A DNA stretch of 64,000 nt from Pirellulaceae bacterium. GTDB taxonomy: Bacteria; Planctomycetota; Planctomycetia; Pirellulales; Pirellulaceae. This document shows, piece after piece, positions 2,255 to 32,826 of the stretch (the stretch's first letter is position 1; the number at the start of each line of letters is the position of its first letter). The stretch is taken from positions 66,120 to 130,119 of the forward strand of contig JAVJSD010000014.1 in the NCBI GenBank assembly GCA_040219575.1, in the 5' to 3' direction. Below the pieces are notes generated by a model that did not search any database, was not told where the DNA came from, and worked only from the letters and a program-made list of their open reading frames with translations. The translations under genes were made by a program, and so were the position numbers.

Positions 2255-4192
2255 CTAGCGGATCACGCCGCGCGAGCGGAGAAGCTCCAGGATTCGCTCG
2301 ACGCAATCCTCCACGGGAAGTTCGTGCGTGGGGAGCGTGAGGTCGGGCTGCGGCGGCGTTTCGTATTGCGAACTGACGCCGGGGAAGTTGGCGATCTCGC
2401 CCGCATCGGCCGCCCCGTAGTGGCCCTCGGTGTCGCGCTCGCGGCAGACCTCGATCGGGGCCGACAGATGCACGACCAGGAACTTGTCGCTGCCGACAAC
2501 CTCCTTCGCCCTTTGCCGCACGTCTTCGCTGGGAGCCAGGAAGGCGGCGACGCAGATCAAACCCGCTTCGTTGATCAGCCGCGCAACCTCCGCGCTGCGA
2601 CGGAGGTTCTCGCTGCGGTCCTCGGCCGTGAAGCCCAGGTCGCGGCTGATTCCCAGCCGCATGTTCTGGCCGTCGAGCACCGTGCAAGCGCGGCCCTCAT
2701 CGAACAGTTTGCGCTCTAGCGCATTGGCCATCGTCGTCTTGCCGGCGCCCGCCAGGCCGGTGAGTAGAATCGTGGCGGGTTGTTGGCCGAATCGCGCGGC
2801 CCGCTCCTCAGCCGTGACGTTGCTGTCGCGGCTCTGAAGATCGCGGCTGGCGGGCTCGGCGTCCCAGTGATCGCGCCGCTCGACCTCGGTGCGGCGGTCG
2901 AGAATCATTCCCGCCCCGACCGTCACGTTGCTGATGCGGTCGATGACGATGAACGCCCCCGTGCCGCGGTTCCGCCGGTAGCCGTCAAAGGCGATCGGTT
3001 CGTTGAGCGCCACCGCACAGCGACCGATCTCGTTCAATTCCAACGTCGGCGACTCTTTGCGATGCAGCGTGTTCACATCCACCTGATACCGCAACGTGTG
3101 AATCGCGCCAGGCACCGTCTTGGTCGTCTGCTTGAACAAGTACTGCCGGCCGGGAACCATGCCCTGTTCCGACATCCAGACCACCATCGCGTCGAAGTTC
3201 TGCTCCAATCGCGGCACATTGCCCGGCCGCACGATCATGTCGCCGCGGCTGCAATCGATCTCATCCTCGAGCGTGATCGTCACCGACTGCGGCACAAACG
3301 CCTCTTCCAATTCGCCGTCGAAGGTCACGATGTTCTTGACGCGGCTGGTCTTTCGCGACGGCAGAACCATCACCTCGTCGCCCTTGCGGACGATGCCCGA
3401 GGCCAGCGTGCCGCAGAAGCCGCGGAAGTTGAGGTGCGGCCGGTTGACCAGTTGCACCGGAAAGCGGAAGTCCTCCAGGTTGCGGTCCGAACCGATGTAG
3501 ACCGTCTCCAAAAAGTTCATCAGCGTGCTGCCGTCGTACCACGGCATGTTCGGGCTCCGCTCGACGACGTTGTCGCCCTTGAGGGCCGAAACGGGAATGA
3601 AGTGCAAGTCGGGCAACTCCAGCCGGGCGGCGAAGTCCTGGTAGTCGCTCTTGATCTGCTCGAATCGCTCCTGACTCCAATCGACCAGGTCCATCTTGTT
3701 GACCGCCACCACCACGTGCTTGATGCCCAGCAGCGAGGTGATGAAGGTATGCCGCCGTGTCTGCGTGAGCACGCCGTGGCGGGCGTCGATCAGAATCACG
3801 GCCAGGTCGGCGGTCGAGGCGCCGGTGGCCATGTTGCGCGTGTACTGCTCGTGGCCCGGCGTATCGGCGATGATGAACTTCCGCCGGGCGGTGGAGAAGT
3901 AGCGGTAGGCGACGTCGATGGTGATGCCCTGCTGCCGCTCGTCTTCCAATCCGTCGAGCAGCAGCGCCGCGTCGATCTCTTCGCCGGTGGTGCCGAAGCG
4001 CTGGCTGTCCTTGCGAATGGCGGCGATCTGGTCCTCGTAGACCATCTTGGCCGACAGCAACAGCTTGCCGATGAGCGTACTCTTGCCGTCGTCCACGCTG
4101 CCGCACGTGATGAACCGCATCAACTCCTTGCGTTCATGCTGCGCGAGGTAGGCGTTGATATCCGTGGCGATCAGGTCAGACGAATGCGACAT
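2255..4192 (-). CDS. cysNC: bifunctional sulfate adenylyltransferase subunit 1 / adenylylsulfate kinase (CysN-CysC fusion)
   Basis: N-terminal translational-GTPase G1 motif ([15 protein letters not shown]) and CysN-like body. C-terminal APS-kinase P-loop ([11 protein letters not shown]). Confidence 0.9.
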
Positions 4193-4217: not shown

Positions 4218-4262
4218 GGAAGAAGGACTAACCGCTGATGAACGCTAATGAGACGCTAATGA
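4218..4262. repeat. left arm of a 45-bp imperfect inverted repeat bounding the GxxExxY cassette (core 32-mer accgctgatgaacgctaatgagacgctaatga)
   Basis: Its reverse complement recurs at 4715-4759 with 2 mismatches plus a 4-bp gap. A third copy of the 32-mer core lies at 27210-27242. Confidence 0.8.
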
Positions 4263-4272
4263 CGCAGCTCGA

Positions 4273-4668
4273 TCAATTGACGTATTCCGATAGAACAACG
4301 CGTTTCCACTCCACCTTCGCAATCGGAGAAAAATTGATCAAGTAGCCCACGGCGTGTCGCGTAATGCGCATGTAGTTCATCAATTGGGCTTCATGTGGCT
4401 CGGCCAACGCGCTCACGGCTTTCAGTTCCACGACGATTTCCGCAAAGACAACTAGATCAGGAATGTACCGCTTCTTCAGCTCAACCCCTTTGTAGTAAAC
4501 GACCAGTTCCTGTTGGCGGACGAATGGAATACGTCGCGACGCCAGTTCAATCTCCAACGCTTCTTGATAGATCTCTTCCAGCAGTCCCCCACCCAACTCT
4601 CGGTGAACCGCGAACGCCGCCCCCATCAATGCATAACCTTCCTGGGAAAACGGTTTGTCGCGGTCCAT
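4273..4668 (-). CDS. GxxExxY family protein (PD-(D/E)xK-like small protein family)
   Basis: 131 aa with the LEEIYQEAL block characteristic of GxxExxY / 23S-rRNA-IVS-associated family proteins. It sits between cysD and cysNC, flanked by inverted repeats. Confidence 0.75.
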   Translation of the reverse strand: MDRDKPFSQEGYALMGAAFAVHRELGGGLLEEIYQEALEIELASRRIPFVRQQELVVYYKGVELKKRYIPDLVVFAEIVVELKAVSALAEPHEAQLMNYMRITRHAVGYLINFSPIAKVEWKRVVLSEYVN

Positions 4669-4714
4669 TTGACGGCCCCCCGTGACTACCTGAATCCTTG
4701 CCTTGCTCTTTACT

Positions 4715-4759
4715 TCATTAGCGTCCCATTAGCGTTCATCAGCGGTTGGCCCTTCTTCC
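4715..4759. repeat. right arm of the inverted repeat bounding the GxxExxY cassette
   Basis: Reverse complement of 4218-4262, including the flanking ggaagaagg / ccttcttcc extension. Confidence 0.8.
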
Positions 4760-4773
4760 GGCATTCGAATAGC

Positions 4774-5685
4774 TCAGAAGTAGCCTTCGCGTTTTTTCTT
4801 TTCCATCGAGCCGGATTGATCCGTGTCGATCTTCCGTCCTTGCCGCTCGCTGAACTTGGTGAGCAGCATCTCTTGAATGATGTCGGGCAACGTCGTGGCG
4901 CCGGATTCGACGGCGCCGGTGAGCGGGTAGCAGCCGAGCGTGCGGAAGCGGACGGTCTTCATCATCGGCTTCTCGCCGGGCTCCAGCGGGAGGCGGTCGT
5001 CGTCGACCATGATCAGATCCCCGTCGCGGTCGACGACCGGGCGCTCCGCCGCGAAATACAGCGGCACGATCGGAATCTTCTCCAGGTGGATGTACTGCCA
5101 GACGTCGAGTTCGGTCCAGTTCGAGAGCGGAAACACGCGAATGCTCTCGCCCTTGCGGACCCGCGCGTTGTACAGGTTCCACAACTCCGGACGTTGATTC
5201 TTTGGATCCCAGCGGTGATTCGTATCGCGAAACGAAAAGACGCGCTCCTTGGCGCGAGATTTCTCCTCGTCTCGCCGGGCGCCGCCGAAGGCCGCGTCGA
5301 ATTTGTATTTGTTGAGCGCCTGTTTGAGCCCTTCCGTCTTCATCACATCGGTGTGCACCTGGCTGCCGTGCGTGAATGGGCCGATGCCTTGCTGCACGCC
5401 GTCCTGGTTGATGTGCACCAACACCTCGAGGCCGAGCTCCTTCTTGGCGTACTGCTCGCGGAAGTCGATCATCTCGCGGAACTTCCAGGTGGTGTCGACA
5501 TGCAGCAGCGGAAACGGCGGTTTGGCCGGGTAGAACGCCTTCAGCGCCAGCTGCACCATCACCGACGAGTCTTTGCCGACGGAATACAGCATCACCGGGT
5601 TCTCGAACGCAGCCGCCACCTCGCGAATGATGTGGATGCTCTCGGCCTCGAGCTGTTTCAGATGCGTAAGTTGATAGCTGCTCAT
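4774..5685 (-). CDS. cysD: sulfate adenylyltransferase subunit 2
   Basis: PAPS-reductase-like fold with a CysD-type sequence ([25 protein letters not shown]..., SVGKDSSVM). The start is taken at the internal MSSYQ; the longer track ORF adds an unlikely Pro/Arg-rich leader. Confidence 0.9.
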
Positions 5686-6000
5686 GCGGGGCTGCAGTTC
5701 GGCAGGCGGCGTCGCCGGCAGAGAGAAGTGGGGACCGCGAGGCGGGTGCGAATCGAGCCGCGGCCTCGACGTTTGGGGGGTGACTTCAGGCGGCATCCTT
5801 GCTCGCTCCAGACTTTCAATATTCTCAGTTTTATGCCGGAAACCCCGTTCGTTCCATGCCCCTACCCGTTCCAGCGAAGGGCGGCAGTATAGGAAAACCG
5901 CCGGTGACGCTCAACGTCAGTGGTTGGCGGTCCGCGTCCCAATCTTGAGTTGCGGATGGAAACGCGACGCCAGCATCGGCCACGATGTGTGAACGGCGGG

Positions 6001-7518
6001 CTACGGCTCCTTCTTCGGCAGCGGGGGCCACTCGATGCGGCCGGCCTCGTACCGGGCGAACTTCCAGGCGGGCCAGGTGGGCGATTCGTCGCGGACCTCG
6101 TGGTATTTCGCCTTCAGCTTGGCGAACATCTGAGCCAATCGTTTCGGCTGCGAACCGGCCAGGTCGTGCGCTTCGGCGACGTCCTGCTTGAGGTTGTAGA
6201 GTTCGGCCCGGCCCAACTCGGCGGTCTTAATCGCCTGCTGCGACTCCTCGGTGATATCGCCGCTGGGTCCGAGCGGCGTGCCGTTCAGTTCGGCGAGGAC
6301 CTTCCAGTCGCCGATCCGCATCGCCACCTTCGGCGCACTGCTGGCGTAGTTGTATTGCCAGTAGAGCGGCGTCTGGCGATCGATCGCCTCGCCGCCGAAC
6401 AGCGGCACGATGCTGGCGCCGTCGAGGGCCCGATCTTTCGGTGTCTCGACGCCCGCCAGTTCGCACAGCGTCGGCAGCACGTCGACGCCGCAGACCGGTT
6501 CGCCGGAGACCGTCCCCACTTTGATATGCCCCGGCCACTGCAGGATGCCGGGCACGCGGATGCCGCCTTCATACACATGCCCCTTTTTCTCTCGCAGCGG
6601 CCCGGTCGAACCGTGCGGATGGTAGCGCGTGATGGCGGGACCGTTGTCGCTGGTGAAGAACACCAGCGTGTCGTCGCGCAGGCCCTGCTTGTCGAGCGAC
6701 GCGATCAGGCGGCCGAAGGCGTGGTCCATCTGCGAGATGTTGCCGTGATGGCGGCTGTAGCTGGCGTCGTCCGAGGGATACAGGTCCATGAACTGCTGGG
6801 CGCTGGCGATCGGCTCGTGCGGTTCGTGAAAGCAGACGAACAGGAAGAACGGCTTCGACTTGTCGCGACGATCGCTCAACCAGTCAATCGCCTCGTCGGC
6901 GACCAGCTGCGCCGAATAGCCCTCCAACTTGCCGACCGGCTCGCCGTTGCGGACGAAGTTGTCGGGGTTGTGGTGATTCGGCAAGGCGTTGTTCTGCGTC
7001 GAGAACCACCAGTCGAAGCCGTGATCGCCCGGCTGTGGGTGCTCGGGCATGTTGAACTTGCCGTTGAGATGCCACTTGCCGGTGTGGCAGGTGGTGTAGC
7101 CCGCGTCGCGCAGCAGCGTGGCGACCGTGATCTCGTCGCGGCCGACGTGCATCGGAGAGAACATCGGAATCCAGTTGTGCACGCCGACGCGATAGGGCGT
7201 GCGTCCGGTCATCATGCCGGTTCGCGCGGGAGAGCAATTCGCCGCCGCGGCGTAGCAGTCGGTCAGGCGCAGCCCGGCTTTGGCGAAACGGTCGATGTTC
7301 GGCGTCTTCAAATCCGTTGCGCCGTAGCAAGCCAGGTCGCCGTATCCCAGATCGTCGCAGAGCACGACGACAAAGTTGGGCTGCGGAGCATCGGCCGCGG
7401 ACAATAACAAATTGGCGGTGAGCGAACAGAGCAGGACGACGAGGAGGGCCGTTGGATTCAGCAACGACCAACGCGGTTCGCGACGCATGATTTGGCCTCG
7501 CATGATTCGGCCTCGCAT
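6001..7518 (-). CDS. formylglycine-dependent sulfatase (arylsulfatase family) with signal peptide
   Basis: C-S-P-A-R sulfatase signature (CSPARTGMMTGR), the CDDLGYGD metal-binding block, and an N-terminal signal peptide. Three in-frame ATGs at 7488, 7503 and 7518 are created by a 15-bp tandem repeat, so the start is ambiguous. Confidence 0.85.
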   Translation of the reverse strand: MRGRIMRGQIMRREPRWSLLNPTALLVVLLCSLTANLLLSAADAPQPNFVVVLCDDLGYGDLACYGATDLKTPNIDRFAKAGLRLTDCYAAAANCSPARTGMMTGRTPYRVGVHNWIPMFSPMHVGRDEITVATLLRDAGYTTCHTGKWHLNGKFNMPEHPQPGDHGFDWWFSTQNNALPNHHNPDNFVRNGEPVGKLEGYSAQLVADEAIDWLSDRRDKSKPFFLFVCFHEPHEPIASAQQFMDLYPSDDASYSRHHGNISQMDHAFGRLIASLDKQGLRDDTLVFFTSDNGPAITRYHPHGSTGPLREKKGHVYEGGIRVPGILQWPGHIKVGTVSGEPVCGVDVLPTLCELAGVETPKDRALDGASIVPLFGGEAIDRQTPLYWQYNYASSAPKVAMRIGDWKVLAELNGTPLGPSGDITEESQQAIKTAELGRAELYNLKQDVAEAHDLAGSQPKRLAQMFAKLKAKYHEVRDESPTWPAWKFARYEAGRIEWPPLPKKEP

Positions 7519-7529
7519 GATTTGGCCTC
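7485..7529. repeat. 3 x 15-bp tandem repeat (gcatgattYggcctc) at the sulfatase 5' end
   Basis: Read directly from the sequence. Each unit encodes MRGQI/MRGRI on the minus strand. Confidence 0.85.
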
Positions 7530-7666
7530 GGTGGGATACAGGGGGAGGGAGACGTCTCCCCAGTATAGGAAGATCCGCCGCCGATTTCATCGATTCCCCG
7601 CCGTCGTTAGTGGGCCGTGCCGCCAGGGCCCTCACCTCCGGTCGTGTCGTCGAGTAAAATGGTGGT

Positions 7667-8338
7667 GTGAACGTCTTGTTGTTCGATATCGATGGCACGC
7701 TGGTCAACACCGGCGGTGCGGGAGGACAGGCGCTGAAGGATGCGCTGGCGTCGGAATTCGGCGTCACCGAACCGGCCGCCGTCTCGTTCCAGGGACGCAC
7801 CGATCGGGGCATCGCCCGCGATTTCTTCCAGGCGCACGGAATCGACGACGTGGAGGATTCCTGGCGGCGCTATCATCGGGCCTACCTGCGGCATCTCGCC
7901 ACGCATCTACCGCTGCGGCCGGGCAGCGTGTTGCCTGGAATCGTCGCGCTGCTGGAAGCCGCCGCGATCCGCGACGATGTGGCGGTGGGGCTGCTGACCG
8001 GCAACGTTCGCGAGGGGGCTCGGCTGAAGCTCGAGCACTATCGGCTGCACCACCACTTCCGTTTTGGCGGCTATGGCGATTTGCATCCCCTGCGCGACGA
8101 CGTGGCGCGCGAGGCGCTGGCCGACGCGGTGCGCATCCTGGCTGACTCGACGCCGCGGCGGGTGATCGTCATCGGCGACACCGTGCACGACATTCGCTGC
8201 TCGCGGGCGATCGACGCAGTGGCGGTGGCCGTCTGCACGGGGACCGTTTCGCGCGACGAATTGGCCGCGGAGTCGCCCGACGTTCTGCTGGACGATCTGT
8301 CCGATGCTGCGCCGCTGCTGCGATTGCTCAACGCGTAG
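7667..8338 (+). CDS. HAD-family hydrolase (phosphoglycolate phosphatase-like)
   Basis: DxDGT motif I (LLFDIDGTLV) and the later GDTVHD motif. GTG start. Confidence 0.8.
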   Translation: MNVLLFDIDGTLVNTGGAGGQALKDALASEFGVTEPAAVSFQGRTDRGIARDFFQAHGIDDVEDSWRRYHRAYLRHLATHLPLRPGSVLPGIVALLEAAAIRDDVAVGLLTGNVREGARLKLEHYRLHHHFRFGGYGDLHPLRDDVAREALADAVRILADSTPRRVIVIGDTVHDIRCSRAIDAVAVAVCTGTVSRDELAAESPDVLLDDLSDAAPLLRLLNA

Positions 8339-8361: not shown

Positions 8362-8425
8362 GGTAGCGGAAGTCGTGAGACTTCCGAGGCGGCTTCGAAA
8401 AGTCGGAACTCTCACGAGTTCCGCG
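8362..8425 (+). repeat. REP-like double-hairpin element, copy A
   Basis: Sequence ggtagcggaagtcgtgagacttccga...ggaactctcacgagttccgc. Two 7-8 bp stems with 4-nt loops. Confidence 0.8.
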
Positions 8426-8448
8426 ACGCCGTGGCGTCGTGGCGCGGG

Positions 8449-9460: not shown

Positions 9461-9556
9461 GTAGCGGAAGTCGCCAAACTTCCGACTGACCGTCTGTAGC
9501 GGAATTCGTGAGACTTCCGAGATCGATCGAAGCATCGGAACTCTGGCGAGTTCCGC
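9461..9556 (+). repeat. REP-like element, copy B (1.5 tandem copies)
   Basis: Sequence gtagcggaagtcgccaaacttccga ... gtagcggaattcgtgagacttccga ... ggaactctggcgagttccgcc. Confidence 0.8.
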
Positions 9557-9568
9557 CACACGAGTATG

Positions 9569-14895: not shown

Positions 14896-14955
14896 GCCAA
14901 GTCTTCCGATGTATCGTTCGACCAAACTCGGAAGTCTGGCGACTTCCGCTACGAG
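14896..14955 (-). repeat. REP-like element, copy C (reverse orientation)
   Basis: Its reverse complement reads cgtagcggaagtcgccagacttccgagtttggtcgaacgatacatcggaagacttgg. Confidence 0.75.
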
Positions 14956-16534: not shown

Positions 16535-16612
16535 TCGTAGCGGATGTCGCCAGGCGTCGCCAGACTTTCGCCTTTTTTCCCTGATGCATCGGGACTCTGG
16601 CGAGTTCCGCTA
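16535..16612 (+). repeat. REP-like element, copy D (partly degenerate first hairpin)
   Basis: Sequence ctcgtagcggatgtcgccagg...gggactctggcgagttccgctacc. Confidence 0.7.
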
Positions 16613-18151
16613 CCTTGATCGCCCTCGCGTGCGGCCCTGATTGCGAACCGCCTCGAGCCGCTCGGCCAATTTCCGCGTCACATCGGGATGCTTCTTGGCG
16701 ATGTTGTTCGTCTCGCCGAGGTCGTCCTTCAGATTGTAAAGCTGCGGCGACGCGTCGAGGCCCAGTTCGGTGTTTGTGTTGCGATTGATCTTCGGCCCCT
16801 GGCTCGGTTCGATGTACTTCCAATCGCCCTGCCGCAGCGAAAGGGCCCGGGCATGTTCGACCAGGTGGTCGCGTCCGGATGGCGACTCGCCGAGCAGCGC
16901 GTCGAGGACGTCGAAACTGTCCGGCCCGGCCGCGGCGTCAAGCTTCTGCCCGGTCAGATTCGCCAGCGAGGCCAGAAAGTCGATCTGACAAACCAGCGCC
17001 GCGGACTCGCCCTGTTCGACGTGCGCTGGCCAGCGGACGACCAGCGGCACCCGCGTACCGGCCTCGAAGGCGCTGTACTTGCCGCCGCGAAATGGACCGG
17101 CCGGCCGATGGTCGCCCAGTTTCTCCACGGCGTCGTCGCGGTAGCCGTCGTCGACAACGGGGCCGTTGTCGCTGGTGAAAATCACGATTGTGTTGTCGGT
17201 CAGCTTCAGGCGGTCGAGCGCGGCCAGCAACTCGCCCGTGCACCAATCGAGCTGCGCGATGGCGTCGCCCCGCGGCCCCATGCCGGTCTGGCCGACGAAC
17301 CGTTTGTGCGGCACGCGCGGCACGTGGATGTCGTGTGTCGAGAAGAAGAGAAAGAACGGCTCCTTCTGGTGCTCTTCGAGGAAGGCCACCGCTTTCTTGG
17401 TGATCACGTCGGCCATGTCCTCATCGACCCAGCGGGCGCTCTTGCCGCCGGTCATGTAGCCGATGCGGCTGATGCCGTTGACGATCGTCATGTCGTGCCC
17501 GTGGCTGGGATGCATCTTGAGCAACTCGGGATTGTCGCGGGCCGTCGGCTCGTCGCCCAGCGGCCTGCCGAATTGCACGGCGATGGGGTCCGACTTGTCG
17601 AGCCCCACCACGTGATGGTTCTCGACGTACACGCAAGGCACGCGGTCGCCCGTGGCGGGCACGAGGAAGCAGTAGTCGAAGCCGACTTCGAGCGGCCCCG
17701 GCTTGATCGGGCCGTTCCAGTCGAGGTCTCCCTCGCCAAGCCCCAGGTGCCATTTACCGACGACGCCGGTGGTGTAGCCGGAGTCCTTGAGCATCGACGG
17801 CAGCGTGGTCCGCCCCGGTTCGATAATCAGCGACGCGTTGCCGGGCAGCACGCCGGTTCCCTTCTTGCGCCAGGCGTACTCGCCGGTCAGCATGGCGTAC
17901 CGCGACGGCGTGCAGGTGGCCGAGGGAGCGTGGGCGTCGGTGAAGCGGAGTCCTTCACGCGCCAGCCGATCGATGTGCGGCGTCTTCACCGCCGTCGCGC
18001 CGTAGCAGCCGACATCGCCATAGCCGATGTCGTCGGCGTAGATCAACACGATATTGGGCCGCTGCGGCTCAGCGGCCGCAGCGCCAATGACAAGCGGCGC
18101 CGCGAACAGCACCGCAAGCAAGCTTCGTAAGGTGGAGTTGGAGTATGGCAT
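16610..18151 (-). CDS. formylglycine-dependent sulfatase with signal peptide
   Basis: C-T-P-S-R signature (CTPSRYAMLTGEY), DDIGYGD block, and signal peptide MPYSNSTLRSLLAVLFAAPLVIGAAAA. The start is taken at the internal ATG at 18151. Confidence 0.85.
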   Translation of the reverse strand: MPYSNSTLRSLLAVLFAAPLVIGAAAAEPQRPNIVLIYADDIGYGDVGCYGATAVKTPHIDRLAREGLRFTDAHAPSATCTPSRYAMLTGEYAWRKKGTGVLPGNASLIIEPGRTTLPSMLKDSGYTTGVVGKWHLGLGEGDLDWNGPIKPGPLEVGFDYCFLVPATGDRVPCVYVENHHVVGLDKSDPIAVQFGRPLGDEPTARDNPELLKMHPSHGHDMTIVNGISRIGYMTGGKSARWVDEDMADVITKKAVAFLEEHQKEPFFLFFSTHDIHVPRVPHKRFVGQTGMGPRGDAIAQLDWCTGELLAALDRLKLTDNTIVIFTSDNGPVVDDGYRDDAVEKLGDHRPAGPFRGGKYSAFEAGTRVPLVVRWPAHVEQGESAALVCQIDFLASLANLTGQKLDAAAGPDSFDVLDALLGESPSGRDHLVEHARALSLRQGDWKYIEPSQGPKINRNTNTELGLDASPQLYNLKDDLGETNNIAKKHPDVTRKLAERLEAVRNQGRTRGRSR

Positions 18152-18920: not shown

Positions 18921-18975
18921 TGCGTAGCGGAAGTCGTGAGACTTCCGACGACATTACGAAAACCGGAACACTCAA
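18921..18975 (+). repeat. REP-like element, copy E
   Basis: Sequence gtgcgtagcggaagtcgtgagacttccgacgacattacgaaaaccggaacactc. The second hairpin is degenerate. Confidence 0.75.
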
Positions 18976-25317: not shown

Positions 25318-26280
25318 ATGCGCGCCTTGCTCGCTTTCATCCTTCTCTCCTCCCTCTTGCTGTCGCCAGGAGGCGCCGCGGGCGACGATGTGTGGGTCGC
25401 CGTCGGTTACGGTGGGAGGCGGATGATCTCCACCGACGGCCTGAAGTGGGAGATCACCGCCGAGTGGGCGCAGCCGGGAGGCGACGACGGCAACAACCTG
25501 ATGTCGGCGGTCTTCGCGCAGGATAAGTTCGTGGTGGTCGGCGGCGGAGGGGGCGGGCGCAGCGGCGCCGGACACATCCTCGTCTCGCGCGACGGCCGTC
25601 AGTGGAAGGAGACCTTCTCCGGCAAGTCGCGGATTAATCCCGTCGTGTACGGCGACGGTCGCTTTGTGGTCGGCAGCAGCGGTTACCCGTCCGGAAAACT
25701 GCTGTGGTCCGCCGACGCCGAAACCTGGACGGCGGGCGCGGCGATCGAGACCAAGGGCCTCACGCACTTCCGCGGCGGCGCGTATGGAAACGGCGTCTTC
25801 GTACTGGTCGGCAACGCCGGCGGACAAGGCGGCCGATCGTGGGCGATCGTCACGCCCGACGGCGAGAAGATCACCAGCGAGCGCGACGACCTGCCGGGCC
25901 ACGGCGCGATCGTCTTCGGCGCGGGAAAGTTTCTGATGCTCACCTCCCATCGCGAGGCCGAACTGATCGCCTCGCGCGACGGCGCGACTTGGGCGCCGGT
26001 GCACCCGGAAGAGGGCGCCAAGTTCAGCTGGCTGGTGTCCAGCGGCGGTGAATTCTTCGCCGGCGACGGCAAGGTCGCGTATCGCTCGGCCGACGGCGCG
26101 ACGTGGAAGAAACAGGAACTGCCGGTGCGGGGCGGCGTGAAATGGACCGACGGCACACGCTTCATCAGCACGTCGTGGCCGGGCAAGATGGCCTTCTCCG
26201 CCGACGGCGCGTCGTGGGAGAGTTCGCCGCCGCTGTCGGCCAATGGCATCAACCGCGTGATTCATGGAGACCTGAAGTGA
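25318..26280 (+). CDS. secreted BNR/Asp-box repeat beta-propeller protein (sialidase-like fold)
   Basis: Signal peptide MRALLAFILLSSLLLSPGGAAG. It has seven S-x-D-x-G-x-x-W Asp-box repeats, for example STDGLKWEI, SRDGRQWKE and SADGATWKK. Confidence 0.7.
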   Translation: MRALLAFILLSSLLLSPGGAAGDDVWVAVGYGGRRMISTDGLKWEITAEWAQPGGDDGNNLMSAVFAQDKFVVVGGGGGGRSGAGHILVSRDGRQWKETFSGKSRINPVVYGDGRFVVGSSGYPSGKLLWSADAETWTAGAAIETKGLTHFRGGAYGNGVFVLVGNAGGQGGRSWAIVTPDGEKITSERDDLPGHGAIVFGAGKFLMLTSHREAELIASRDGATWAPVHPEEGAKFSWLVSSGGEFFAGDGKVAYRSADGATWKKQELPVRGGVKWTDGTRFISTSWPGKMAFSADGASWESSPPLSANGINRVIHGDLK

Positions 26281-27227
26281 AGATTCCGCGCTCGCTTGCT
26301 CTACCACTTGTCGGATTCGTCGCCGTGGCGGCCATGATCTCGAGCGGCCGCTTGGCGGCGGCCGCCGAACCGCAGGTGCTCGATCTGTGGCCCGATAAGC
26401 CGCCGGGCGAAAACAAGCAACTGCCGCCCGAGGCGGATCAAACCAAACCGGAAGACCGCCTGATCGCCGGCCGGCGGATCATCAAACTGGGCAACGTGTC
26501 GACGCCGCAAATCGCCGTCTATCGGCCGCCCGCCGACAACGACACGGGGGCGGCCGTGGTCATCTGCCCCGGCGGCGGACATCACATCCTGGCGTACGAC
26601 CTGGAAGGTACGGAGGTCGCCCAGTGGCTCAACACGTTGGGCGTCACCGGCGTGGTGCTCAAGTACCGCGTCCCCTTTCGCAACCCCGAGCAGCGGTGGC
26701 GGGCGGCCGTGCAAGACGCCCAGCGGGCGATGAGCCTGGTTCGCAGTCGTGCCGGCGAGTGGAAGATCGATCCGCAGCGAATCGGCATGTGCGGCTTCTC
26801 CGCCGGCGGGGAGACGGCCGCCCTCACCTCGCTCTTCGATCATCGTCAGTACGAGCCGATCGACGACGTCGACGAGCAGTCGTACCGGCCGAATTTCACC
26901 ATGCTGATTTATCCCGGCGGGCTGGTCGACAAAGCAAGCGAGACGCTGCGCGACGACATCCGCATCGCTGGCGACGCGCCGCCGATGTTCTTCGTGCACG
27001 CCTTCGACGACCGCGTGTCGGCGAACAACTCGCTGCTGCTGGCTTCGGCCCTCAAACGGTCCGGCGGTTCGGCCGAAGTGCACGTCTTCGCCACGGGCGG
27101 CCACGGCTACGGCCTGCGAGAAACAGAAGAGCCGGTAACGCATTGGCCCAAGTTCGCCGCGAGCTGGCTCAATGGACGTGGAATCCTCACGAATGGAGCA
27201 ACCAAGAAAACCGCTGATGAACGCTAA
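26277..27227 (+). CDS. alpha/beta-hydrolase fold esterase (carbohydrate-esterase-like), secreted
   Basis: G-x-S-x-G nucleophile elbow (GFSAGG). Probable GTG start overlapping the upstream stop (GTGA). Signal peptide VKIPRSLALPLVGFVAVAAMISSG. Confidence 0.75.
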   Translation: MKIPRSLALPLVGFVAVAAMISSGRLAAAAEPQVLDLWPDKPPGENKQLPPEADQTKPEDRLIAGRRIIKLGNVSTPQIAVYRPPADNDTGAAVVICPGGGHHILAYDLEGTEVAQWLNTLGVTGVVLKYRVPFRNPEQRWRAAVQDAQRAMSLVRSRAGEWKIDPQRIGMCGFSAGGETAALTSLFDHRQYEPIDDVDEQSYRPNFTMLIYPGGLVDKASETLRDDIRIAGDAPPMFFVHAFDDRVSANNSLLLASALKRSGGSAEVHVFATGGHGYGLRETEEPVTHWPKFAASWLNGRGILTNGATKKTADER

Positions 27228-27242
27228 CAGGGACGCTAATGG
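27210..27242. repeat. third copy of the 32-mer core repeat (accgctgatgaacgctaacagggacgctaatgg)
   Basis: Same 32-mer as at 4231-4262, with 4 mismatches. It overlaps the stop codon of the esterase gene. Confidence 0.7.
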
Positions 27243-27285
27243 CTAGGGAAAGGCATTGCTTTTCATTGGGCTTGGTCCGGCAACT

Positions 27286-27349
27286 TCGTAGCGGAAGTCG
27301 TGAGACTTCCGACATCGTTGAAAGAAAGGAACTCTCACGAGTTCCGCTA
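27286..27349 (+). repeat. REP-like element, copy F
   Basis: Sequence cgtagcggaagtcgtgagacttccgacatcgttgaaagaaaggaactctcacgagttccgctac. Confidence 0.8.
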
Positions 27350-27425
27350 CAAATCGATTTGCCACGTCTGCGTTTTCAGAAGGAGCCTATCATCAATCAG
27401 CGGTTCTCCCTTATCGGAATAATAG

Positions 27426-32712: not shown

Positions 32713-32760
32713 CGCAATGCTCGAATACGTAGGGGAAGGCGGGCGCCGGCTGAAGCCGTG

Positions 32761-32826
32761 TTGCGGAAGTCGCCAGACTTCCGAAGTCCACTGCGCAGTC
32801 TCGGAACTCAGGCGAGTTCCGCGACG
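32761..32826 (+). repeat. REP-like element, copy G
   Basis: Sequence gtgttgcggaagtcgccagacttccgaagtccactgcgcagtctcggaactcaggcgagttccgcgacgc. Confidence 0.8.

Follow-up and report, generated by a model that had tools for sequence, protein, structure and literature searches.

Inverted arms of phased heptamers bracket a GxxExxY nuclease-family gene inserted between cysD and cysNC in a Pirellulaceae bacterium and accompany its relatives in other phyla

Results

A GxxExxY gene between cysD and cysNC

The window analysed here, a stretch of 64,000 nucleotides (nt) from contig JAVJSD010000014.1 of a Pirellulaceae bacterium (assembly GCA_040219575.1, positions 66,120 to 130,119), holds, between cysD and cysNC, a gene of the GxxExxY/PDDEXK_3 family with inverted repeats, called arms below, on its two sides (Table 1). 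This position of the gene, given in an original prediction made from the DNA letters, was borne out by the open reading frames (ORFs) and their profile matches. The 131-residue product matched PF13366 (PDDEXK_3) with an E value of 1.8e-40 (138.4 bits versus a cut-off of 22), which was its sole Pfam match, and TIGR04256 (GxxExxY) with an E value of 2.2e-40 (137.7 bits versus a cut-off of 35); the latter family is described as multi-copy and intervening-sequence-like in its distribution. The protein is a minimal PD-(D/E)XK nuclease core having the fold and the catalytic residues of that superfamily, with residues E31, D71, E81, K83 and Q95 invariant, and its gene is the only GxxExxY gene in the window. 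The true start of cysD is probably near position 5682, because homologues of its product are about 303 amino acids (aa) long.

The two arms are 45 nt each, are 93% complementary and are separated by 452 nt, as expected from the near-perfect inverted repeats of the original prediction. Distances of 14 nt and 46 nt separate the upstream arm from the cysD stop codon (outer end) and from the ATG of the GxxExxY gene (inner end), respectively; for the downstream arm, the corresponding distances are 10 nt to the stop codon of this gene (inner end) and 25 nt to the cysNC ATG (outer end). No promoter-like or terminator-like sites and no rRNA match were found between positions 4100 and 4900.

When the proposed search for the 32-mer core of the arms was run on the window, it was found that the core occurs exactly twice in the 64 kb at up to 3 mismatches, versus 0 occurrences in 100 shuffles. 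A third copy had been predicted near position 27210, overlapping a stop codon. The overlap is real, in that an arm lies across the end of an alpha/beta-hydrolase ORF (26103-27227) and the TAA within its second heptamer, CGCTAAC, is the stop codon of this ORF. The copy itself is a degenerate, gene-less arm that contains a 2-nt insertion and therefore escapes the 32-mer search at up to 3 mismatches. A generic scan of the window for further families of phased heptamers returned just the two arms.

Table 1. Coordinates of features in the window and of the PF05635 genes used for comparison (locus label given before the coordinates).
Feature	Coordinates	Strand	Remarks
cysNC (sulfate adenylyltransferase subunit 1 and adenosine phosphosulfate (APS) kinase fusion)	2255-4192	minus	GTP_EFTU and APS_kinase matches; downstream co-directional neighbour
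GxxExxY/PDDEXK_3 gene, 131 aa	4273-4668	minus	between the arms; PF13366 and TIGR04256
cysD (sulfate adenylyltransferase subunit 2)	4774-5796	minus	PAPS_reduct match; upstream co-directional neighbour
Upstream arm (5' arm of sense transcript)	4715-4759	minus	inverted repeat with 4218-4262; GGAAGAAGG-gcca-AC, CGCTGAT (4744-4738) gaa CGCTAAT (4734-4728) ggga CGCTAAT (4723-4717) ga
Downstream arm, inverted copy	4218-4262	plus	inverted repeat with 4715-4759; GGAAGAAGG-acta-AC, CGCTGAT (4233-4239) gaa CGCTAAT (4243-4249) gaga CGCTAAT (4254-4260) ga
Decayed arm without gene, same heptamer family	27209-27243	plus	CGCTGAT gaa CGCTAAC aggga CGCTAAT; sequence accgctgatgaacgctaaCAgggacgctaatgg
Short inverted partner of decayed arm	27396-27408	minus	ATCAGCGGTTCTC; 177 nt from decayed arm
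Unrelated palindromic repeat	8363-8427, 9461-9559, 14930-14952, 16591-16613, 18924-18946, 27288-27350, 32760-32782		
PF05635 examples	L039 7165-7527; L187 692-1054; L188 683-1048; L189 644-1000		

The arms consist of three phased heptamers

The original prediction took the 45-mer and its 32-mer core as the repeat unit. In place of these, the conserved unit was found to be AAC followed by three heptamers of the form C[G/A]CT[A/G]AT, with a period of 10 and sometimes 11. Among 480 neighbouring heptamer pairs, 382 had a 3-nt spacer and 42 a 4-nt spacer, and the arrays predominantly had exactly three units. The outer boundary, just before the first heptamer, is marked by A, A and C at frequencies of.69,.98 and.97, respectively, and no conservation was found upstream of this AAC; therefore, the additional outer GGAAGAAGG of the arms in the window is not part of the general element. 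Near-perfect complementarity over 45 bp, as in the window, is atypical, the spacers of the two arms being about 50% identical elsewhere. A period of 10 bp is approximately one turn of B-DNA, and so by helix geometry the three heptamer sites would face roughly the same side of the DNA.

The arms accompany GxxExxY genes and match their lineage

The association of arms with genes was evaluated in 80 metagenome loci that encode relatives 60-71% identical to the protein of the window (L-numbers are locus labels), with a strict arm defined as three heptamers and nearness as a distance of up to 260 nt. Of the 80 loci, 73 had one or more strict arms near the gene, and degenerate arms were visible by eye at 6 of the other 7. 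There were about 4 arms per kb near the genes versus 24 arms in 189 kb beyond 400 nt, a difference of about 30-fold. Two layouts were frequent. In type A (24 loci), the order is forward arm, gene and reverse arm, with the gene in the loop as in the window, and in type B (22 loci), the order is reverse arm, gene and forward arm, so that the gene lies between two complete hairpins. The flanking hairpins of type B are direct repeats of one another, including their loops, with 65% identity versus 39% for unrelated pairs.

The same CGCTRAT arms accompany proteins that are 60-78% identical across different phyla. Members of a second subfamily, which has a D-P-K catalytic motif, are bracketed by CACGGAT (L126, L144, L151 and L161), by CACAGAT (L170) or, in the cultured strain Roseimicrobium gellanilyticum, by CGCAGAT. 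Relatives that are only 31-44% identical have the same arm design in every lineage looked at, down to 31% identity, and the heptamers of these members are CACAGAG and CGCAGAG in Bacteroides finegoldii, CACAGAG in Bernardetia, CGCGGAT in Gemmatirosa and CGCGAAG in Sphingomonas; CACGGAT is also found among them, and Treponema has a single CACACGGATTC repeat. Bracketing by inverted repeats is family-wide, which answers the suggestion in the original prediction that other GxxExxY genes be inspected for the same bracket.

Paralogues with different heptamers occur within one genome, both at L126 and at three places on Gemmatirosa plasmid 1. At L126 the two paralogues are about 1.8 kb apart and have their own arms, CACTnAT for one and CACGnAT for the other. 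In the first subfamily, the CACT variants group together on the protein tree, and the corresponding proteins have substitutions in common (positions 16, 77 and 117) as well as a C terminus that is shorter by about 5 residues. The heptamer type goes with the protein lineage and not with the host. The original prediction had named, as grounds for its own rejection, a 32-mer that is ubiquitous and unrelated to GxxExxY genes. The repeat is indeed widespread and mostly gene-less, yet it is still tied to the GxxExxY family because of the roughly 30-fold higher arm density at the genes and because the heptamer tracks the lineage.

Two observations on the proteins were made. Some called start codons fall inside or upstream of the upstream arm (L161, 1001-1423; L163 and L164, 1001-1420; for example, AACCGCAG/ATGACTCAG), which results in a spurious N-terminal extension (140 aa versus 122 aa), and many GxxExxY proteins in databases probably begin with translated repeat sequence. 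Proteins of 250-295 aa (P0369-P0371, P0375, P0378 and others) have two GxxExxY domains in tandem, which hints that the working unit is a dimer.

The conservation of the arms lies in the heptamers

Between paired arms the heptamers were 93% identical, and the spacers were 50% identical in type A pairs and 64% in small hairpins. Among the mismatches in 22 gene-in-loop pairs and 52 small hairpins, there was no excess of G-U over A-C (9:13, 18:11 and 33:38). For the degenerate fifth base of the heptamer, the rate of agreement between the two partners of a pair in small hairpins was 46% versus 41% after shuffling (p = 0.10), and the corresponding values for gene-in-loop pairs, which include young copies such as that of the window, were 60% versus 44%. 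The predicted duplex energies of the sense and antisense strands were split 11 versus 13, with no preference. In the window, the three mismatches between the arms in DNA become two G-U pairs and one C.A mismatch in the sense RNA.

An RNase III stem with G-U wobbles was considered as the main explanation of the arms and was dropped because of the lack of G-U bias and the 11:13 split of the energies. Because the heptamers are conserved to the base across phyla, the 10-bp phasing is strict, the units number exactly three and there is no compensatory change, the pattern favours sequence-specific recognition by a factor over a constraint on structure only.

Genes of PF05635 (the family of the 23S rRNA intervening sequence (IVS), a four-helix bundle) were also observed to be co-directional in gene rows of cyanobacteria, one of them between cmr2/cas10 and cmr3. 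They are bracketed by inverted arrays of contiguous heptamers with a period of 7, namely TTGACTG/CAGTCAA, GGGAACA/TGTTCCC and CAGGAGT/ACTCCTG; among four examples on plasmids, that of Pseudanabaena (L186) lacks an obvious repeat. The PF05635 bracket is parallel but differently built.

The cassette is an insertion, and a related cassette has been inherited vertically

In two relatives (L141 and L143), cysD and cysN are contiguous, and neither the GxxExxY gene nor the arms are present. In the relative with 89% cysD identity, the cysD stop codon overlaps the cysN start codon (tgATG), and in that with 86% a spacer of 64 nt is present. The gene and its arms are an insertion relative to related genomes. 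The comparison of this junction had been proposed in the original prediction, together with the possibility that relatives would have the same gene without the repeats; the relatives compared lack the gene.

Elsewhere, the cassettes also lie co-directionally within gene rows. Besides cysD/cysN in the window, the junctions are ureB/ureC (L120), exbB/exbD (L151 and L161), fabD/fabG (Sphingomonas), radA/x (Bacteroides) and hsdS/x/Fic/hsdR (L170), and a crude ORF call placed the upstream neighbour in the same direction at 48 of 57 loci. The exbB/exbD cassette is common to two lineages, in which the flanking genes are 80-86% identical in nucleotide sequence and the cassette gene 76%. There are 55 synonymous and 18 nonsynonymous codon differences in the cassette gene, compared with 47 and 20 in the neighbouring exbD; the heptamers are kept and the spacers drift. 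This cassette has passed down vertically over a long time, with purifying selection acting on it.

Several irregularities at individual loci were recorded. At L148 (1393-1995), an ORF fragment of the four-helix-bundle type (containing FRLADQILRSARSTTA) is directly followed by a second GxxExxY cassette. The region upstream of this cassette is a repeat of the one upstream of the first, and the repetition takes in about 15 nt beyond the arm; the pattern suggests either a tandem duplication of the cassette or an insertion into another family of small genes. The same hipA-GxxExxY cassette is found at L144 and L147 and at L145 and L146 with different downstream genes, a 2-hydroxyacid dehydrogenase in two samples and BacA in the remaining two. 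Divergence between the sequences sets in about 180 nt beyond the downstream arm and reflects either a rearrangement with a breakpoint close to the element or a chimeric assembly there. A Fic-family gene directly follows the GxxExxY gene in two lineages that are unrelated to each other: L165 (1192-2694) is a Treponema megaplasmid, and L170 (1501-3327) is a type I restriction-modification operon of the order hsdM-hsdS-GxxExxY-Fic-hsdR, with variable hsdS alleles upstream. At L142 (4030-4133), the contig of a relative breaks off about 100 nt past cysD within a palindromic stretch rich in C/G, ccctcgcccccttgggggagaggg, and this break may be repeat-induced.

An origin in defence systems or phages was also considered and rejected, as PADLOC gave just a sub-threshold Cas4 match, PHROGs gave no match and there were no relatives in viral contigs or phage records.

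Gene-less hairpins and arrays

A 19-mer taken from the arm, CCGCTGATGAACGCTAATG, was found at 59 loci in contigs representing one genome per species, compared to about 4 expected by chance. The hosts were Planctomycetota, Verrucomicrobiota, Cyanobacteria (including cultured Lyngbya and Microcoleus), Acidobacteriota and one archaeal metagenome-assembled genome of Methanosaeta. The gene-less forms consist of small hairpins (forward arm, a loop of 8-180 nt and reverse arm), alternating arrays (L003 and L010) and solo arms, and at L028 and L030 the arms are surrounded by nested hairpins of other heptamers. Gene-less arms are multi-copy but diverged. The Gemmatirosa hairpin was present at 17 places on the two megaplasmids of its host and on no other plasmid among 72,556 records.

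The window contains, in addition, an unrelated palindromic repeat, GTAGCGGAA[G/C]TCGTGAGA[G/C]TTCC, with 11 copies versus 0 expected, often as inverted pairs. One such pair sits in the loop of the decayed arm pair (27209-27413). The repeat was absent from all 169 fetched loci, and it looks like a family of this genome's own that is similar to repetitive extragenic palindromic (REP) sequences. In a further observation, the sulfatase ORF at 6001-7812 (minus strand) encodes an N-terminal tandem peptide repeat, RGQIMRGRIMRGQIMR, which results from a tandem DNA repeat at 7380-7480; the true start of this gene is probably downstream of the peptide repeat.

Discussion

The descriptive result is robust: a nuclease gene is accompanied by inverted arms of phased heptamers that match its lineage, and gene-less derivatives of these arms are abundant. 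On the strength of the sequence patterns, the arms may be arrays of recognition sites for the encoded nuclease, a proposal that we put forward tentatively. The factor that binds the arms would most likely be this nuclease, acting as an oligomer. By analogy, the element might best be read as a promoterless nuclease cassette with cognate phased-heptamer repeats, similar to the partnership of REP doublets forming hairpins (REPINs) with the tyrosine transposases that are associated with REPs (RAYTs).

A possible course of events is as follows. Action of the nuclease at or near pairs of arms would create breaks, and these breaks would be repaired from a gene-bearing copy, with the gene being placed either in a hairpin loop (type A, as in the window) or between two hairpins (type B). 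Gene-less hairpins would arise when the gene is lost by deletion or by recombination of the hairpins on either side, and they could accumulate like REPINs or bacterial interspersed mosaic elements (BIMEs). In the window, transcription reading through from cysD would express the cassette, and pairing of the arms in the transcript is also possible. The element would be a semi-domesticated nuclease with its own population of repeats.

Comparison with known systems shows partial likeness to several of them. As in REPIN-RAYT systems, which in function are the closest analogue, the element combines an enzyme gene with flanking short palindromic repeats that are cognate to it, are lineage-specific and have a gene-less population, with scattered inverted pairs and alternating arrays between genes, and inheritance is vertical under purifying selection, with no sign of rapid jumping (PMC3116915, PMC3337134, PMC5581495). 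The enzyme here, in contrast, is a PD-(D/E)XK nuclease of 120-130 aa, whereas a RAYT is an HUH/Y1 transposase of the IS200/IS605 type; without such a transposase the element is therefore not a member of the REPIN-RAYT group. Furthermore, each arm has three phased heptamers with free spacers rather than a single imperfect palindrome, the gene is inside operons and often in the loop of a repeat pair, and some genomes hold several paralogues with different heptamers. Similarity to 23S rRNA IVS elements consists in a small ORF within inverted repeats that has entered an essential transcription unit in the sense orientation (PMC4990558), in the patchy distribution, in arms that can pair in the transcript and in the brackets of the PF05635 operon genes. 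However, the element here is in an mRNA spacer, its ORF belongs to PF13366 instead of PF05635 and its arms are conserved in sequence, phased and without compensatory changes; with a different location and a different ORF family, it does not belong to the 23S IVS elements.

The enzyme I-Ssp6803I is a small PD-(D/E)XK homing endonuclease, and genes of homing endonucleases such as this one, whether free-standing or borne by introns, resemble the cassette in being small nuclease genes that lie patchily within conserved gene rows, possibly in their own recognition region; the PD-(D/E)XK catalytic core is a further point of likeness. The co-variation of the heptamers and the gene-less hairpins, as possible empty sites, could be viewed in the same way. 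The putative target here is a repeated and dispersed hairpin, unlike a unique, conserved site within a gene, there is no intron or intein and one cassette has been kept for a long time under purifying selection. Integron cassettes are likewise promoterless co-directional ORFs, and a type B gene resembles them in being flanked by direct copies of a complete imperfect palindrome. The cassettes described here are single and scattered in housekeeping operons instead of being in arrays, and their palindromes are made of phased heptamers. No integrase or attI was found beside the loci whose genes were called, the window not having been scanned for IntI.

Several other explanations of the arms need to be weighed against recognition by the nuclease. 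One is that the arms matter only through pairing in the polycistronic transcript, where a stem would loop out the ORF and be cut by a double-strand RNase of the host, for example RNase III, the nuclease not acting on the arms at all. The cut would release the cassette mRNA and allow insertion into operons to be tolerated, as with the 23S rRNA IVS elements, in which a PF05635 ORF is bounded by a stem cut by RNase III (PMC4990558). The co-directional position of the cassettes within operons, the lack of a promoter or terminator within the cassette and the inverted repeats of quite different sequence around the operon-internal PF05635 genes are all consistent with this explanation, as is the strength of the possible duplexes, which is predicted to be -59.6 kcal/mol for the unusually perfect arms of the window and to average -40 kcal/mol elsewhere. 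The structure by itself leaves unexplained the base-level conservation of the heptamers across phyla and the strict phasing of three units at 10 bp. Compensatory variation is absent, given spacers that are 50-64% identical and a fifth base that is uncorrelated in small hairpins, and there is neither a G-U excess nor a preference for the sense strand; the gene-less hairpins, alternating arrays and nested copies have no ORF to loop out, and at about half of the loci the hairpins do not enclose the gene. We consider this explanation, the main alternative, unlikely; IVS-like behaviour and recognition by the nuclease are not mutually exclusive.

It is also conceivable that the arms are a generic REP/BIME-like host repeat of an unlinked factor, into or beside which GxxExxY genes insert by preference, or where they are retained as at a safe site, with no functional link. 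In its favour, most arms found with the 19-mer have no adjoining GxxExxY gene; the window holds one cassette and one decayed pair without a gene, and the arrays and nesting recall the behaviour of REPs and BIMEs. What makes this quite improbable in our judgement is that the heptamer follows the nuclease lineage and not the host, as illustrated by the differing paralogues at L126 and the clustering of the variants on the protein tree, that arms of the same design occur in every lineage looked at down to 31% identity and that arm density at the genes is about 30-fold higher. Cut-and-paste transposition, with the arms as terminal inverted repeats (TIRs) for a transposase encoded elsewhere and the GxxExxY gene as passenger cargo, is the least probable explanation by far and would be very surprising. 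Inverted repeats are present at both ends, as in a TIR transposon or a miniature inverted-repeat transposable element (MITE), short gene-less derivatives exist and the ends of Mu, Tn7 and elements of the inverted repeat/direct repeat (IR/DR) type carry internal direct repeats, as the arms do. However, no target-site duplication is visible and there is no conserved duplicated flank across 286 arms, no transposase was found beside the loci whose neighbours were called or annotated, every cargo gene belongs to this one family and its heptamers match, and identical copies were not found at multiple sites.

Recognition of the arms by the encoded nuclease, the reading that we favour, also has a number of observations against it, which concern both the activity and the mobility of the element. 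Binding or cutting of the heptamers is deduced from co-variation, and co-inheritance of gene and arms could give the same pattern. The average predicted RNA duplex between arms reaches 68% of the energy of a perfect duplex. The PF05635 genes do not encode a nuclease and are nevertheless bracketed by repeats; therefore, a bracket might serve a function that is independent of the protein, such as an RNA stem. A GxxExxY gene is beside the 19-mer at just 1 of 58 distinct genome loci, in stretches of up to 8 kb. With respect to insertion, the flanks of the cysD-cysN junction are too diverged to align, and the exact boundaries and any target duplication are therefore unreadable; no direct repeat adjoins the arms in the window, where ATTCG is present on both sides but does not abut them, and no precise pair of empty and filled sites was found. 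GxxExxY genes were present in 8 of 72,556 plasmid records, all of them large non-mobilizable replicons, and relatives were absent from phage records and viral contigs, and therefore recent mobility is not demonstrated. Finally, look-ups of proteins present on many contigs always returned one genomic site for identical proteins, and recent transposition was dropped for this reason. Together with the shared exbB/exbD cassette, these single-site proteins indicate that the cassettes are old, vertically inherited and selected rather than freshly jumping. The small mobile or homing-type unit of the original prediction thus stands as an insertion; recent jumping was not seen, and homing would be a matter of interpretation.

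No description of repeats flanking GxxExxY genes was found in the literature searched, in agreement with the original prediction that the bracketed unit is undescribed. Searches with the heptamers as words returned only primer noise, and a paper on TAACTGA direct repeats was judged to be unrelated. Rfam contained no family matching the arms of the window or of 11 related loci, and a search by sequence found no solved structures. Arms built of phased heptamers, and the correspondence between heptamer and protein lineage, are apparently new.

The GxxExxY family comprises 13,017 clusters at 50% identity. In its widest form, our proposal would be that GxxExxY proteins (about 13,000 such clusters) are heptamer-specific nucleases, each lineage being matched to its own 7-bp word that is present as three phased copies in inverted arms. 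The gene and its repeats would then constitute a new class of PD-(D/E)XK-based self-propagating or semi-domesticated elements across many bacterial phyla, which seed REP-like hairpins and insert into operons, and the pairs of protein and heptamer would amount to a readable code of DNA recognition. We regard this generalization as possible, with rather more doubt than confidence.

The function of GxxExxY/PDDEXK_3 was given as 'Unknown' in a 2012 survey of the superfamily, and the family is among the larger bacterial families of no known function; the lineage-matched motif offers a first concrete hypothesis for its ligand or substrate. If the proposal is true, it would provide an origin for short hairpin repeats and arrays in Planctomycetota, Verrucomicrobiota, Cyanobacteria, Acidobacteriota, Gemmatimonadota and Bacteroidota, and it would add a second, enzymatically unrelated example of a long-lived partnership of the REPIN-RAYT type. 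If recognition were confirmed, the natural pairs of protein and heptamer would be a ready-made data set on specificity.

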